Part shown: piece by piece, positions 3,339 to 10,105 of the stretch
Position numbering within the stretch: the first letter of the stretch is position 1
How the letters are laid out: every line of letters begins with the position of its first letter
Source of the DNA: Myxococcota bacterium
Lineage (GTDB): Bacteria > Myxococcota_A > Polyangia > Nannocystales > Nannocystaceae
Reading direction: 5' to 3'
NCBI GenBank assembly: GCA_039028615.1
Contig: JBCCHT010000023.1
Coordinates: forward strand, 1-64,000
DNA length: 64,000 nucleotides
Notes under the pieces: model-generated
What the model saw: the letters and a program-made list of their open reading frames with translations, nothing else
Told to the model about the DNA's origin: nothing
Databases searched by the model: none
Program-made: the position numbers and the translations under genes

Positions 3339-6300
3339 GTGAACACCACGGATTCACCCGACTCGGACCGCTCTGCCCTCGACGAGGCGGAGCGGTCTTC
3401 GTCGTCCGGCACCGTCCCCGCCGATCCCCGCGACTCGAGCGGCTCCGGGCTCGCCGAGCAGGAGCTGGTGCGGGCCTCCGTGATGTCTCGGCTGTTCAGC
3501 GCCCATGAGACCGAAGCCCCTCGCATCGGCCGCTTCGTCGTCCTGCGAAGGCTCGGCGAATGGGGCATGGGCATCGTGTACGCGGCGTACGACGAGAAGC
3601 TCGACCGCCGGGTCGCCATCAAGGTGTTGCGGCGCGAACTCGATGCATCCGCGCGCGGGCGGATCCTCCGCGAGGCCAAGGCGATGGCGACGATCAGCCA
3701 TCCCAACGTGGTGCCCGTGTTCGAGATCGGCGAGCACGGCGAGGACCTGTTCATCGTCATGGAGTTCCTGCCCGGGCAGCCGCTCGACCGGTGGCAGCAA
3801 CAGCCCGAGCGCAGCGAGGCCGAGGTGCTCGCGGCCTACGTCCTCGCCGGTCGAGGCCTCGCCTGCGCCCACGGCCACGGGCTGATTCATCGCGACTTCA
3901 AGCCGCACAACGTGATGGCGCAGACCGCCGAAGATGGGCAGCTCGGCGTTCGTGTGCTGGACTTCGGCCTGGCTCGACGCGCAGAGGAACTCCCGTCGGT
4001 CGAGCGGCCTCGGCCAAAGCCCCCCGACGAGACCACGAGCGCCAGCGATCGGATGACGGCCACGGGCGCGATCTTGGGGACGCCCGCATACATGGCTCCC
4101 GAGCAGTTCACGAGCGCGTCCGTGGGCGCGGCGGCGGATCAATTTTCGTTCTGCGTCGCGCTTTGGGAGGGGCTCTACGGCACGCGGCCCTTTGTCGGGC
4201 ACACGGTGGCGGAGCTTCGAGACGCCATCACGGCCGGGCTGACCACCAGTCCCCCACGCCGCGCGACGCTGCCGGTCGAGGTCGGCGTGGCGCTCGAGCG
4301 CGGGCTGCAGGTCGATCCCGACGCCCGCCATGCCTCGATGAACGCGTTGCTGATCGCGCTGACCCCCGAGGAGCCCACCCGTCGTTGGCCGCTGGTCGTG
4401 GCCGGTCTCGCCGTGCTCGGCGTGGGCGGGGCCGGCCTGATTGCGTGGCAGCAAGCACGAGCCGAACGGTGCAGCGGTGCGCCCGAGCAAATGACGGGCG
4501 TATGGGACGCGGAGCGGCGAGCCGAGGTCGAGTCGTCGATGCTCGGCATCGACAACGAGTACGCACAGGTGGCCTGGTCGCGAAGCTCCGCCGAGCTCGA
4601 CGCCTACGCCGAGGCGTGGACGGGCATGTTCACCGAAGTGTGCGAAGCCACCACCATCCGACGCGAGCAATCCACCGAGGCGATGGATCTACGCATGACC
4701 TGCCTGCATACCGCCCGGCGAGAGCTGGCGACGGTGACAGAGGTGTTGAGCGATGCCGATGCCAAGGCCGTGCAGAAGGTGGACGAGCTGCTGGGAACCC
4801 TGGCGCCGCTGGAGCGCTGTGCCGACCTCGATGCCCTCGGGCGCGACGTGCCCCCGCCCTCCGCGGCAGAAGCCGAGATGGTCGAGCGCGTCCGGGAGCT
4901 GCTCGCCGAGGCAGAGGCGCAACGCAAGGTCGGTCGCATCGACCGGGCGGCAGAGCGTCTGAGCGAGGCCCAAGCGCTGGCGGAGGGTGTCGAGTACGAG
5001 CCCCTTCGAAGCGAGCTCGACCTCGAGCGGGGTGAAGTGCTCGACCTGCAGGGCGACTACGAGCAGTCCGAGCAGGCCCTCGAAGACGCGCTGAAACGAG
5101 CGACGCGCTGGGATCAGCGAGAGATCATGGAACGCGCAGCTCGCGGCCTGATCTCGGTCATCGGGGACGCGCAGCGAAAGCCCGAGCAAGCGCTCCGCTA
5201 CCGAGAGGTCGCCGAGGGTCTCGCCGAAGGTGACCCGCTCCGGGAGGCCGCCGTCCGACTCAACCTGGCGACGGTCCTCCGCCGCCACGACGCTCTGACC
5301 GAAGCGGAGACTCAGATCCGGCGCGCCCTCGAGCTCCGCGAGGGCGCGTTGGGTCCCGACGATCCCGCCGTCGCGGTCGCGCGAAACAACCTCGCCCTGA
5401 TCGTGCGCAGCCAGGGCAAGCAGGCAGACGCCAAACAGCTGCTGCGTCAGGTGCTGGAGACGAGAAAACGGACGCTGGGTTCCGACCACCCCGACGTCGG
5501 GCAGTCCTACAACAACCTGGCCACGAGCCTGGCCATGGGCGGTGCCCTCGACGAGGCCCTGCCCTTGTTCGAGCAAGCCCTGGACGTGTGGGAGCGATCG
5601 CTGGGGCCCGATCACCCGCTCGTCGCGGGCGTCCTCCACAACCTCGGGATGACCCAGCGGCGGCTCAAAGACCCATCCGCGGCCGAGTCACGGCTGCGGC
5701 GAGCGCTCGAGATTCGCGAGCGCACGCTCGAGCCCACGCACCCCGCCATCGCCTCGACCCGGGGAGAACTCGCCAATGTCTACGGGGACAACGGTGACTT
5801 CGTCAGGGCAGAGCGAGAGCTTCAGCTCGCGCTCACCATGACGGAGCAGCGACTGGGACCCGACCACTCCCGGGTGGGCATTCGCCTCAACCAGCTCGCC
5901 GAGATTCACCTGCAGCAAGGCCGATTCGAGGACTGCGAGCGAGACTCCCGACGGACGCTGGAGATCTTCGAAGCAACGCTGGGGCCCGAGCACGTCAATA
6001 TGGCCAAGGCACGTCTCATGCTCGGCCGGGCGCTGCTTTCTCGGGGGGAGCACACGGAAGCGGGACGGGAACTGGCGCAGGCACGGACGCTGGCACAGAA
6101 AGTCCTGGACCCCGCCGATCCTGCCCTGGCCGAGGCGCACACGCTGGAGGCGATGGCCCTGCTTGCCGGGGGCGACCCCGAGTCCGCGCGACCGCTGGCC
6201 GAGCGAGCATGGTCGAACCTGCAGCAGGGCAGCGCCGACCCGGTGCAACGAGCCGAAGCGGCCTTGGTGCTCGCCCGCGCGCTATGGGCCGCGAGCGACG

Positions 6301-6428
6301 ATGATGCACACCTGCGAGCGATCGAGGTCGCTCGAGCGGGAATCGTGGGTGATACATCGAAAGCTCCAGAACTGGCGAAGAGCCACGCGCAGCTGAGCGC
6401 GTGGCTTCGCGACAAAGAACAACAGTAG
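3339..6428 (+). CDS. membrane Ser/Thr protein kinase with TPR repeats
   Basis: VAIK, HRDFKPHN, DFG and GTPAYMAPE motifs; TM segment WPLVVAGLAVLGVGGAGLIAW; LGPDHP-type TPR repeats. Confidence 0.95.
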   Translation: MNTTDSPDSDRSALDEAERSSSSGTVPADPRDSSGSGLAEQELVRASVMSRLFSAHETEAPRIGRFVVLRRLGEWGMGIVYAAYDEKLDRRVAIKVLRRELDASARGRILREAKAMATISHPNVVPVFEIGEHGEDLFIVMEFLPGQPLDRWQQQPERSEAEVLAAYVLAGRGLACAHGHGLIHRDFKPHNVMAQTAEDGQLGVRVLDFGLARRAEELPSVERPRPKPPDETTSASDRMTATGAILGTPAYMAPEQFTSASVGAAADQFSFCVALWEGLYGTRPFVGHTVAELRDAITAGLTTSPPRRATLPVEVGVALERGLQVDPDARHASMNALLIALTPEEPTRRWPLVVAGLAVLGVGGAGLIAWQQARAERCSGAPEQMTGVWDAERRAEVESSMLGIDNEYAQVAWSRSSAELDAYAEAWTGMFTEVCEATTIRREQSTEAMDLRMTCLHTARRELATVTEVLSDADAKAVQKVDELLGTLAPLERCADLDALGRDVPPPSAAEAEMVERVRELLAEAEAQRKVGRIDRAAERLSEAQALAEGVEYEPLRSELDLERGEVLDLQGDYEQSEQALEDALKRATRWDQREIMERAARGLISVIGDAQRKPEQALRYREVAEGLAEGDPLREAAVRLNLATVLRRHDALTEAETQIRRALELREGALGPDDPAVAVARNNLALIVRSQGKQADAKQLLRQVLETRKRTLGSDHPDVGQSYNNLATSLAMGGALDEALPLFEQALDVWERSLGPDHPLVAGVLHNLGMTQRRLKDPSAAESRLRRALEIRERTLEPTHPAIASTRGELANVYGDNGDFVRAERELQLALTMTEQRLGPDHSRVGIRLNQLAEIHLQQGRFEDCERDSRRTLEIFEATLGPEHVNMAKARLMLGRALLSRGEHTEAGRELAQARTLAQKVLDPADPALAEAHTLEAMALLAGGDPESARPLAERAWSNLQQGSADPVQRAEAALVLARALWAASDDDAHLRAIEVARAGIVGDTSKAPELAKSHAQLSAWLRDKEQQ

Positions 6429-6502
6429 CGATCCGGGAGGGAATCGAACCCTCGACCTGCGGGATAAGAAGCCGCCGCTCTAACCAACTGAGCTACCAGA
6501 CC
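6429..6502 (-). tRNA. tRNA-Lys(CTT), atypical
   Basis: GGTCTGG TA GCTCAGTTGGTTAGAGC G GCGGC TTCTTAT CCCGC AGGTC GAGGG TTCGATT CCCTC CCGGATC G; followed by CTA instead of CCA. Confidence 0.85.
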
Positions 6503-6520
6503 GACGTGCACGTCGGCGTA

Positions 6521-6597
6521 TGGCGATCCGGGAGGGAGTCGAACCCTCGACATGTGGGTTAAAAAGCCACCGCTCTAACCAACTGAGCTACCGGACC
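6521..6597 (-). tRNA. tRNA-Lys(TTT), atypical
   Basis: GGTCCGG TA GCTCAGTTGGTTAGAGC G GTGGC TTTTTAA CCCAC ATGTC GAGGG TTCGACT CCCTC CCGGATC G CCA. Confidence 0.92.
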
Positions 6598-6617
6598 GAC
6601 GAGGTACGCCGACAGGC

Positions 6618-6645
6618 GCCCGCACGCCGGCTACGGCGTGCGGGC
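6618..6645. repeat. perfect 12-bp inverted repeat in tRNA spacer
   Basis: GCCCGCACGCCG-GCTA-CGGCGTGCGGGC. Confidence 0.9.
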
Positions 6646-6711
6646 TACGGTTTACGCCGCGTACCCCGAAAACGAAGGATGTGAATTGGATGGGACATTG
6701 AAAGTGTCTCT

Positions 6712-6790
6712 TGGAGGGCCAGACGGGACTCGAACCCGCATTCTTCTCGTTTAACAGACGAGTGCTGCAACCAGATTCAGCTACTGACCC
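6712..6790 (-). tRNA. tRNA-Asn(GTT), atypical
   Basis: GGGTCAG TA GCTGAATCTGGTTGCAGC A CTCGT CTGTTAA ACGAG AAGAAT GCGGG TTCGAGT CCCGT CTGGCCC T CCA. Confidence 0.88.
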
Positions 6791-6848
6791 GCGAGGACTC
6801 GGCCCGCACGAGGCGGGGTCGAGTTCAATCGTCGTGTCACTCTAGGCT

Positions 6849-6874
6849 GCCCGCACGCAAGGACGCGTGCGGGC
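6849..6874. repeat. 10-bp inverted repeat in tRNA spacer with the same arm as 6618-6645
   Basis: GCCCGCACGC-AAGGAC-GCGTGCGGGC. Confidence 0.9.
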
Positions 6875-6887
6875 TACCGATTGCGCT

Positions 6888-6962
6888 TGGTGCCTCGGGA
6901 CGGAGTCGAACCGCCGACGCCCACGCCTTCAACGTAGCGCTCTACCGCTGAGCTACCGAGGC
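6888..6962 (-). tRNA. tRNA-Phe(GAA)
   Basis: GCCTCGG TA GCTCAGCGGTAGAGC G CTACG TTGAAGG CGTGG GCGTC GGCGG TTCGACT CCGTC CCGAGGC A CCA. Confidence 0.9.
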
Positions 6963-7093
6963 CATTGTGTCGGTGCTGCCCGGTCACGCCTACGCGCGCG
7001 CCGGGCCACACAAACGGCTCGGTGATGCCAACCATGGGGCGAGATGAACGAGACATCGGAATCGACTTTCCAAAGACGACGAAGAGAAACAAC

Positions 7094-7170
7094 TGGAGCC
7101 GGTAGCAGGACTCGAACCCGCAACCCCCTGATTACGAAACAGGTGCTCTACCCGATTGAGCTATACCGAC
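7094..7170 (-). tRNA. tRNA-Thr(CGT)
   Basis: GTCGGTA TA GCTCAATCGGGTAGAGC A CCTGT TTCGTAA TCAGG GGGTT GCGGG TTCGAGT CCTGC TACCGGC T CCA. Confidence 0.92.
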
Positions 7171-7264
7171 GCGAAGGCGCTGATCGGTCGCTACGGGTCT
7201 TTCTACGGTCGTGGGAGCACTCCTGGTGCTCGCCTGGAAAATCAGCCTTACACCGAGGAAACGC

Positions 7265-7360
7265 TCAACACGAGCCAAATTTACGGCTATTCGAAGCCGT
7301 AAACGAACCCATCGCGACCGGATTGGTCGTCGTGTGGGTCTTTGTCGTGGTGCGTTTCAT
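7265..7360 (-). CDS. putative 31-aa leader peptide of the tRNA operon (thrL-like)
   Basis: ATG 7360 to TGA 7265: MKRTTTKTHTTTNPVAMGSFTASNSRKFGSC; weak SD (GGAA) upstream; overlaps a hairpin at 7280-7303. Confidence 0.55.
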   Translation of the reverse strand: MKRTTTKTHTTTNPVAMGSFTASNSRKFGSC

Positions 7361-7398
7361 GGCGTAGTTCCGTTGGACCGCCGAAGCGATCTTCAAAC

Positions 7399-7427
7399 GG
7401 TTTAGGGGATGAATACGGACGGGTCAA
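7399..7427 (-). promoter_or_regulatory. sigma70-like promoter for the leader/tRNA operon
   Basis: Minus strand TTGACC (7427-7422), 17-nt spacer, TAAACC (7404-7399); AT-rich tract upstream. Confidence 0.55.
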
Positions 7428-7465
7428 GCATTCGATCGAAAAAAGAATGCGGCACGGTTTCGGAC

Positions 7466-10105
<2,640 letters not shown>

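Follow-up and report, generated by a model that had tools for sequence, protein, structure and literature searches.

We analysed the first 64,000 nucleotides (nt) of contig JBCCHT010000023.1 from a Myxococcota bacterium of the family Nannocystaceae (this whole stretch is referred to as the window), and within it a minus-strand operon of five transfer RNA (tRNA) genes, Thr(CGT), Phe(GAA), Asn(GTT), Lys(TTT) and Lys(CTT), that is preceded by a short open reading frame (ORF). We consider it probable, although not beyond reasonable dispute, that this ORF belongs to a leader through which the progress of ribosomes is sensed and a small operon of spare tRNA genes controlled, and that slow decoding of the codons cognate to these tRNAs leads to their synthesis. 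The ORF, the match between its codons and the downstream tRNAs, the redundancy of the tRNA genes and the competing helices around the ORF were all established by sequence comparison, within this genome and across its relatives.

Leader codons and the downstream tRNA sets

The leader ORF occupies 7265..7360 of the minus strand and, as read and translated from the sequence, has 31 codons and a TGA stop (ATG at 7360, TGA at 7267-7265). Fifteen of the 31 codons are cognate to the five tRNAs: eight Thr codons (four of them ACG), three Lys codons (AAA, AAG, AAA), two Asn codons and two Phe codons. These counts are exactly those of the original prediction, an earlier reading of the same DNA that had proposed an accessory tRNA operon controlled by a leader peptide. 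The cognate residues reached a binomial score of 5.5, and the operon's own set ranked first among 13 tRNA sets.

Other tRNA arrays of this genome have the same arrangement: each has its own promoter and a short ORF in which the residues of that array are abundant. Cognate residues amounted to 7/24 in the leader of the Asp-His array, 8/24 for the Met-Phe array, 18/36 for the Arg-Leu array, 12/36 for the array of four Ser genes and Tyr, 8/32 for the Cys-Gln array and 16/30 for the seven-gene Ser/Ala/Trp/Cys/Val/Ile array, compared to 15/30 for the array of the window. We then took all 13 multi-tRNA clusters of the genome, unselected, against the 13 tRNA sets, with the best upstream ORF chosen identically for each pairing. 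The true pairing of leaders and tRNAs gave a sum of 28.6 versus a permuted mean of 7.8 (standard deviation (sd) 3.2), and none of 200,000 permutations reached 28.6. The cognate set ranked first for six arrays and second for one. No convincing leader ORF was present at the Thr-Tyr-Gly-Thr, Gln-Glu, Pro-Arg and Glu-Lys housekeeping clusters or at a Ser-Ser pair (contig C83). The candidate leader of a Pro-Pro array (contig C1 of this assembly, G000) was not counted: only 4/37 of its residues were cognate, its own set ranked fourth, and it was not conserved in five genomes of the genus. We regard seven arrays of this genome, with 25 tRNAs, as well supported.

The match extends to the choice of codons. 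Rare A/T-ending codons accounted for 35/58 of the cognate codons and 2/17 of the non-cognate ones, compared to 195/878 in six genes of the window. Across successive thirds of the ORF the cognate fraction was 0.34, 0.40 and 0.38, and cognate codons were depleted only where codons are base-paired. In a separate observation, a second frame that overlaps the Met/Phe leader (L023, G000:C43:29930-30040) is rich in His and Asp and scores highly against the Asp-His set; this frame is probably a by-product of repeated triplets.

A DNA-level search of 41 related genomes recovered the leader region in five of them, four from the same genus (71-81% identity) and one from another genus. The frame from ATG to TGA, 31-32 codons long, is retained in all five relatives (G002, G003, G004, G005 and G019), while the arrays behind it differ (Thr-Met-Lys-Asn-Phe-Lys-Lys; Phe-Lys-Asn; Met-Phe-Lys-Lys-Asn; Met-Phe-Lys-Asn; Lys-Asn). 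Four leaders of our genome, that of the window included, share nucleotide motifs around the start and the stop, and a covariance model, R1, was built from nine leaders with these common motifs. (The motif of the stop region alone was discarded as a search key, being found at 399 places in the genome.) R1 had only four matches in the 12.3-Mb genome, which are these four leaders, all of them upstream of arrays. In the Nannocystaceae it had 34 matches, in 24 of 73 genomes and 8 of 17 genera. Same-strand tRNA genes lie 20-300 nt downstream at 29 of the 30 R1 loci examined, and the thirtieth locus is cut by a contig end. In 26 of these 30 matches an ATG at the model start opens onto the conserved stop, and by eye two further matches seem to use GTG at the start position; one locus (L049) has the ATG ORF at the model start and is itself cut by a contig end. 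The ORFs of the R1 leaders are 24-48 codons long. The only two matches outside the family in a 151-genome sample of the class (G181 and G120) fell in coding-like sequence with no tRNAs and were set aside as false positives.

The middle parts of these leaders vary in step with the arrays. Leaders of Thr-Val-Ile-Met arrays contain runs of those residues, the leader before a Met-Phe repeat array is rich in Met and Phe, and the leader before Asp-Asp-His is rich in His and Asp. For a family-wide test of composition we used 19 non-redundant leaders found by R1, from which the five N-terminal residues and the last residue were dropped; three R1 matches without an ATG at the model start were left out. 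The sum was 35.6 versus 10.3 (sd 3.0) and the cognate fraction 0.42 versus 0.25, and neither value was reached in 200,000 permutations. In addition, the choice among Thr codons agrees with the Thr anticodons present in the array: 43 of 51 are readable versus 31.2 expected, a result reached by 1 of 20,000 permutations. The Arg/Leu, Ser/Tyr and Cys/Gln leader classes, undetected by R1, obey the same composition rule and are kept with their arrays in four, four and two other genomes, respectively. The comparison of orthologous clusters had been suggested in the original prediction, and it bore the proposal out on both counts: the ORF is in frame in five relatives, and its codon content tracks the tRNA set in orthologues, in paralogous arrays and in four unrelated leader classes.

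The tRNA genes themselves are redundant. All five genes of the window were called on the minus strand by both ARAGORN and Rfam (58-65 bits, cut-off 29), and each has a second gene elsewhere in the genome with the same anticodon. tRNA-Thr(CGT) (7094..7170) is 77% identical to the other Thr(CGT) gene; tRNA-Phe(GAA) (6888..6962), tRNA-Asn(GTT) (6712..6790), tRNA-Lys(TTT) (6521..6597) and tRNA-Lys(CTT) (6428..6502) are 73%, 62%, 70% and 75% identical to their non-array copies, respectively. The assembly (12.27 Mb in 94 contigs) contains 86 tRNA genes, of which 27, covering 18 isotypes, lie in eight same-strand arrays of 2-7 genes (up to 11 in relatives). Every one of the 27 has a same-anticodon copy outside the arrays, with 51-77% identity. 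Glu, Gly and selenocysteine are the isotypes missing from the arrays. As the array tRNAs are both redundant and divergent, 'accessory' is the correct label for them, and the earlier description of the five genes in the window as a back-up set (62-77% identity) stands.

Several further features of the tRNA genes were observed. By eye, the accessory Phe tRNA differs from the housekeeping copy at positions 32, 37 and 38 of the anticodon loop, and the accessory Phe and Lys tRNAs as a group show anticodon-loop differences at 32, 37 or 38. The discriminator base, also by eye, is U in the accessory Asn tRNA (G in the housekeeping copy) and G in both accessory Lys tRNAs (A in the housekeeping copies). 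GC-rich hairpins with an identical 10-nt arm lie on the minus strand in the Phe/Asn spacer (6849-6874) and in the Asn/Lys spacer (6618-6645); this repeated palindromic element could be a processing site or a structural spacer. For the first tRNA of the seven-gene array (L021, G000:C27:172144-172260) ARAGORN gives an acceptor stem of 5 bp, and by eye a 7-bp stem results if ~57 more upstream bases are counted, including a hairpin insert of ~44 nt. Finally, the Ser-anticodon tRNAs of the seven-gene array (73 nt) and the Leu(CAG) tRNA of the Arg-Leu array (77 nt; G000:C43:37444-37520, L024) are without the long variable arm, and their charging identity is therefore uncertain.

Leader RNA structure and locus layout

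Segments around the leader ORF can pair in alternative ways (all coordinates in this section are on the minus strand unless stated otherwise). Segment 1 (7352..7366), which is made up of the spacer upstream of the ATG, the final base of that ATG and codons 2-3, pairs with segment 2 just past the stop. Segment 2 (7249..7273) covers the final two sense codons, the stop and 16 nt beyond it; it forms the 5′ arm of a hairpin that we call X, and its pairing partner may be either segment 1 or segment 3. The 3′ arm of X (7208..7230) is made up of segments 3 and 4 and a conserved tail, and both arms were defined from masked folds and duplex energies. Within the 3′ arm, segments 3 and 4 form a small hairpin of 6 bp, P4 (7215..7231), when segment 2 is masked. 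A further hairpin, of 9 bp and supported by covariation, lies inside the ORF at codons 20-27 (7280..7303). The two local hairpins (7303-7280 and 7231-7215) had been recognised from the outset.

The helices are conserved by compensatory change. In the nine leaders, the helix between the start region and the post-stop region (1:2) was 98% paired in its inner part and 77% in its outer part; in the 34 R1 matches the values were 94% and 84%, and both sides changed in 10 of 13 pairs. The in-ORF hairpin was 87% paired in the nine leaders, with covariation in 7 of 9 pairs, and 90% paired in the 34 matches, where all 9 pairs covary. For the three helices together, 88-92% of the cells were paired in the nine leaders, compared to 29-46% when the partners were slid (one of these counts gave 88% versus 34-45%), and 11 of 22 pairs changed on both sides. 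The corresponding values for the 34 matches were 90% versus 34-48%, with 19 of 22 pairs covarying.

Hairpin X was judged by duplex energies; a MAFFT alignment of the post-stop region failed to align the 3′ arms. The X arms of the leader in the window gave a duplex of -25.7 kcal/mol, and 2 of 200 shuffles were as low. Over 26 leaders the median z was -3.1, and for 11 of the 26 no shuffle of 200 was as low. The energy of X ranges from -25 to -42 kcal/mol, which makes it much stronger than P4. In masked folds X formed when the ORF was occupied and P4 formed when a ribosome was placed at the stop, and with no ribosome X and the 1:2 helix had similar energy. The alternative between X and P4 would explain the near-invariance of the Cys codon, of the TGA and the next bases, and of a short motif after P4. 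In the Arg/Leu, Ser/Tyr and Cys/Gln classes the stop codon likewise lies in or just before a conserved strong hairpin. The original prediction had suggested folding the leader for alternative structures, and ribosome-position-dependent structures supported by covariation were indeed obtained.

Upstream of the ORF, sequence reading gave a -35 hexamer at 7422..7427 and, after a 17-nt spacer, a -10 hexamer at 7399..7404. A -35 of the same type recurs at the same distance in the orthologues and the paralogous leaders, with the same arrangement of the two hexamers. Transcription is expected to start near 7392, and the minus-strand transcript would be ~230 nt long ahead of the first tRNA. A scan for consensus promoters called none at the array; its rule demands T at the last position of the -10 hexamer. 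The promoter with its 17-nt spacer, the 31-codon ORF and the five tRNA genes thus all lie where the original prediction had placed them. A small stem-loop at the 5′ end of the leader transcript (7376..7391) has moderate support, and a stem-loop was seen by eye at the same place in 9 of 9 leaders inspected. Folding of the 5′ untranslated region (UTR) gave a median z of -1.6, with 9 of 18 values below -1.5 (18 of the 19 non-redundant leaders). A purine-rich, Shine-Dalgarno-like element, again read from the sequence, lies 8-11 nt before the ATG (7368..7371), and by eye a GGA/GAG-type element was found at the same distance in nearly all class-A leaders inspected. As a side observation, five leaders from other genera (L037, L042, L047, L048 and L054) carry a 5′-UTR stem-loop with an identical 7-nt loop in place of the tetraloop hairpin of the window; this common stem-loop could be a binding site.

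The array is surrounded by genes for extracytoplasmic function (ECF) sigma factors, Ser/Thr kinases with TPR repeats, an astacin and a protein with a fibrinogen domain. No gene for tRNA repair, a nuclease, a synthetase, defence or another part of tRNA metabolism adjoins the array in the window. The relatives of the adjacent kinase are in Nannocystaceae (Enhygromyxa, Plesiocystis, Paraliomyxa and Nannocystis; 32-52% identity), and the DNA of the window was found in full only in a marine metagenome run; no RNA run was listed as containing it. The array ends, directly beyond its final tRNA gene, in a long GC-rich hairpin (~6367-6410) that lacks a clear T-run. The kinase ORF on the plus strand (3339-6428) converges on the array: its 3′ end overlaps with this hairpin, and its stop touches the last base of tRNA-Lys(CTT).

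Proposed mechanism and alternative explanations

We propose that the sigma-70-type promoter would give rise to the leader transcript, the 5′ part of which would be translated into a 31-residue peptide without a function of its own. The codons of this peptide are those read by the downstream tRNAs, preferentially the rare A/T-ending ones. Three pairings compete around the ORF: 1:2; segment 2 and the last codons with segments 3-4 and the tail (X); and 3:4 (P4). A ribosome that reaches the stop would mask segment 2, so that P4 forms, and on its release the 1:2 helix would shut the start site, giving the off state. A ribosome held anywhere in the ORF would leave segment 2 free, X would form and RNA polymerase would run on into the tRNA genes, giving the on state. 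The spare tRNAs would then restore decoding, the leader would be translated faster and the array would be switched off again, as in a negative feedback.

The sensing part of this proposal is well founded. Translation of the ORF, the polarity and the output step, that is, how an off state would stop tRNA synthesis, we infer. Stalling is read as the on signal because the topology is that of trp-type leaders, with the stop just before segment 2, 2:3 competing with 3:4, and 1:2 formed without translation. It is also favoured because the spare tRNAs diverge from the housekeeping copies, which argues against mere gene dosage.

A wider picture can be drawn more tentatively. In this picture, which we regard as possible but on balance doubtful, the family would keep a near-complete second tRNA set (here 25-27 of 86 genes, 18 isotypes) in modules, each with a codon-resolved stalling sensor, and the whole would act as a surveillance-and-repair circuit. 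Cleavage or depletion of housekeeping tRNAs, e.g. by toxins of competitors, phages or defence systems, would induce only the matching variant spares, and RNA structure would stop transcription without a U tract or Rho.

Several observations weigh against the proposed mechanism, above all in its output step. No hairpin followed by a T-run, i.e. no classic U-tailed terminator, lies between the leader ORF and the first tRNA, where our scan called none and where the original prediction had already seen none. No T-run follows P4, X or the 1:2 helix, and at +13 to +28 past the stop the T frequency is raised, to 30-50%, without a consistent T-run. The genome ends its housekeeping tRNA genes with canonical terminators: in at least 12 of the 33 plus-strand tRNA units inspected by eye, a GC-rich hairpin is followed directly by 4-7 T. 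The in-ORF hairpin was rejected as a terminator candidate, with only 3-4 T after it in the genus and none in other genera. Rho-dependent leader attenuators, of the tnaC, mgtL or corA type, require Rho and a C-rich, G-poor loading site that is exposed in the off state. The original prediction had named Rho as a fallback, and this is now disfavoured. The Rho RNA-binding domain (PF07497) was detected in none of 25 Nannocystaceae genomes (this genome and 24 others) but in 13 of 16 from neighbouring families of the same class, and a search of our genome with the Rho protein of a relative gave no match. The Nannocystaceae may lack the Rho termination factor. The C-minus-G skew of the leader ORF is +0.09, within one sd of genome windows. 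An output of the Rho-dependent type was rejected for now, as no Rho was found and the C-rich loading site is weak.

Other points against the proposed mechanism concern the codons, the alignment and the polarity. Some of the rare leader codons sit in the A-U base of the in-ORF hairpin, and structure may explain part of the codon bias. The Thr run at codons 4-6 persists in orthologues whose arrays are without tRNA-Thr: in L003, L004 and L006 (genomes G003, G005 and G004) the array has no tRNA-Thr gene, the leader-to-tRNA spacer is ~300 nt versus 94, and the Thr codons are kept. (The ~300-nt spacer of these loci may contain a relic of a lost tRNA-Thr gene.) Val and Lys codon choice shows no match to the anticodons of the array. 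The larger covariation counts come from a 34-row alignment that was made by fitting to the model and has two false positives and one weak match among its rows, and the compared sequences are related to one another. Moreover, the polarity is drawn from logic and from analogy only, and a switch turned on by completed translation would be just as compatible with a stop codon placed in the 5′ arm of a strong hairpin.

In such a reversed switch, only a ribosome that reaches the stop would melt or prevent X, so that transcription continues, and stalling would mean off. Scarcity of the matching amino acids or charged tRNAs would then cause extra tRNA capacity to be kept back, an amino-acid-specific, pyrBI-like counterpart of stringent control. 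In favour of this reading, the most stable conserved hairpin of class A, and likewise that of the Cys/Gln and Arg/Leu classes, has the stop within its 5′ arm or immediately ahead of that arm, X at -25 to -42 kcal/mol far exceeds P4, and P4 has no terminator after it. Several arrays also group the amino acids Thr, Ile, Met, Lys, Asn and Asp, which we take to be one biosynthetic family. However, X too is without a T-run (the 12 nt after it were inspected), and extra capacity would be expected in the form of near-identical copies, but the identity between array and housekeeping tRNAs is no more than 51-77%. The feedback on tRNA supply would be positive, without an obvious set point, and the segment topology is that of trp-type leaders, in which stalling switches on. 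We consider the reversed polarity unlikely, although it is the main rival of the proposed mechanism.

Less probable still, and clearly so, is a structured non-coding leader (an RNA that binds a protein or tRNA, a processing signal or a stabiliser) in which the open frame would be a by-product. Conservation of the RNA structure is strong and extends to the bases of the start and stop codons, base pairing accounts for the conserved N- and C-terminal residues, and a terminator is absent, all as such a leader would have it. Nevertheless, the frame stays open although its length varies between 24 and 48 codons, a Shine-Dalgarno-like element stands at the right distance, and the residues in the variable middle of the ORF change along with the tRNA set. 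A single composition rule is obeyed by four leader classes that differ in structure, and the region gave no match to the T-box or any other Rfam family. A peptide that acts in its own right (a modified-peptide precursor, a toxin or a signal), merely co-transcribed with the tRNAs, is very improbable: a conserved length and a C-terminal Cys would fit it, but the conserved residues are only residues 1-5 and the last, the codons of which are base-paired, there is no conserved core, the composition follows the tRNA set, and the neighbouring genes for ECF sigma factors and Ser/Thr kinases include none for modification or export. That the codon match arose by chance, or from the composition of low-complexity sequence beside tRNA genes, can practically be dismissed: the Thr run does overlap a repeated ACG/ACC-rich motif, and another frame of the Met/Phe leader is rich in His and Asp, but 0 of 200,000 permutations reached the observed match in each of two independent designs, and the match holds for sets as chemically unrelated as His/Asp, Met/Phe, Ser/Tyr, Arg/Leu and Cys/Gln.

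Comparison with known regulatory systems

Leader-peptide attenuation is a textbook mechanism for the genes of amino-acid synthesis. In the switch proposed here, by contrast with that use, the leader's sensing principle appears to regulate tRNA supply itself, one codon family at a time. If this is true, decoding speed would feed back directly on the expression of tRNA genes, there would be an explanation of why large genomes retain divergent redundant tRNA genes in small arrays, and the leaders would be natural compact sensors of codon-specific ribosome stalling. With no canonical terminator and no Rho found, the output step may itself be new. The window contributes a lineage with GC-rich DNA, a genome with four leader classes and a switch that has no terminator, and with Enhygromyxa, Plesiocystis and Nannocystis among the named relatives, the system is present in families of cultivable relatives. 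Our literature search returned no account of leader-peptide control of tRNA genes, and the combination of 'tRNA array' and 'attenuator' gave 0 papers.

In Proteobacteria, leader-peptide transcription attenuators control amino-acid operons, with trpL, thrL, hisL, leuL, pheL and ilvL as examples (cf. PMC1183508 and PMC3082878). The leader in the window resembles them in that a short ORF with a start and, by eye, a ribosome-binding element lies in the 5′ leader, that its codons are cognate to what the operon supplies, and that mutually exclusive, ribosome-position-dependent pairings are found in silico (covariation, masked folds and duplex energies). As in those systems, the leader is short and rich in regulatory codons, rare codons are preferred, several amino acids may be covered at once (thrL, ilvL), the stop falls just before segment 2, and 1:2, 2:3 and 3:4 exclude one another. 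Unlike in those systems, the targets are tRNA genes and not biosynthetic enzymes, segment 1 is the translation start region and the 3:4 hairpin is without a U tract. The original prediction had likened the peptide to that of thrL, and the likeness holds for composition. It does not extend to homology: an Rfam search of positions 5500-8500 of the window, with E up to 10, returned only tRNA and chance-level matches, and no leader family, T-box or riboswitch.

T-box riboswitches bind uncharged tRNA directly, without a need for translation, and choose between an antiterminator and a terminator. The proposed switch is like a T-box in that it would sense the state of specific tRNAs and control genes of the translation apparatus; it is unlike a T-box in its conserved ORF and in the absence of a T-box match.

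Phage T5 offers a case of tRNA replacement: excerpts of PMC12409363 report that T5 tRNAs replace host tRNAs cut by the PARIS anticodon nuclease AriB, which targets Lys, Thr and Asn tRNAs in E. coli. As far as these excerpts go, Lys, Thr and Asn of the array in the window overlap with the AriB targets, and the spares are, as in T5, sequence variants with the same anticodons. In contrast to T5, the spare tRNAs here are chromosomal, and no nuclease or defence gene adjoins the array. We take the overlap as a lead towards the physiological trigger, not as evidence for it.

The closest biological parallel is the trn operon of Anabaena sp. PCC 7120, which according to PMC8421152 is a cryptic, horizontally spread array of ~23-26 tRNA genes. 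As reported there, direct repeats in its promoter are the presumed site of a repressor, and impaired translation induces the array; neither 'leader' nor 'attenuat' appears anywhere in PMC8421152. Both systems have supernumerary redundant tRNA genes, and the role proposed here corresponds to its induction under impaired translation. They differ in that the arrays of the Nannocystaceae have 2-11 genes (an L-array has twenty or more) and that each of them carries its own codon-matched leader.

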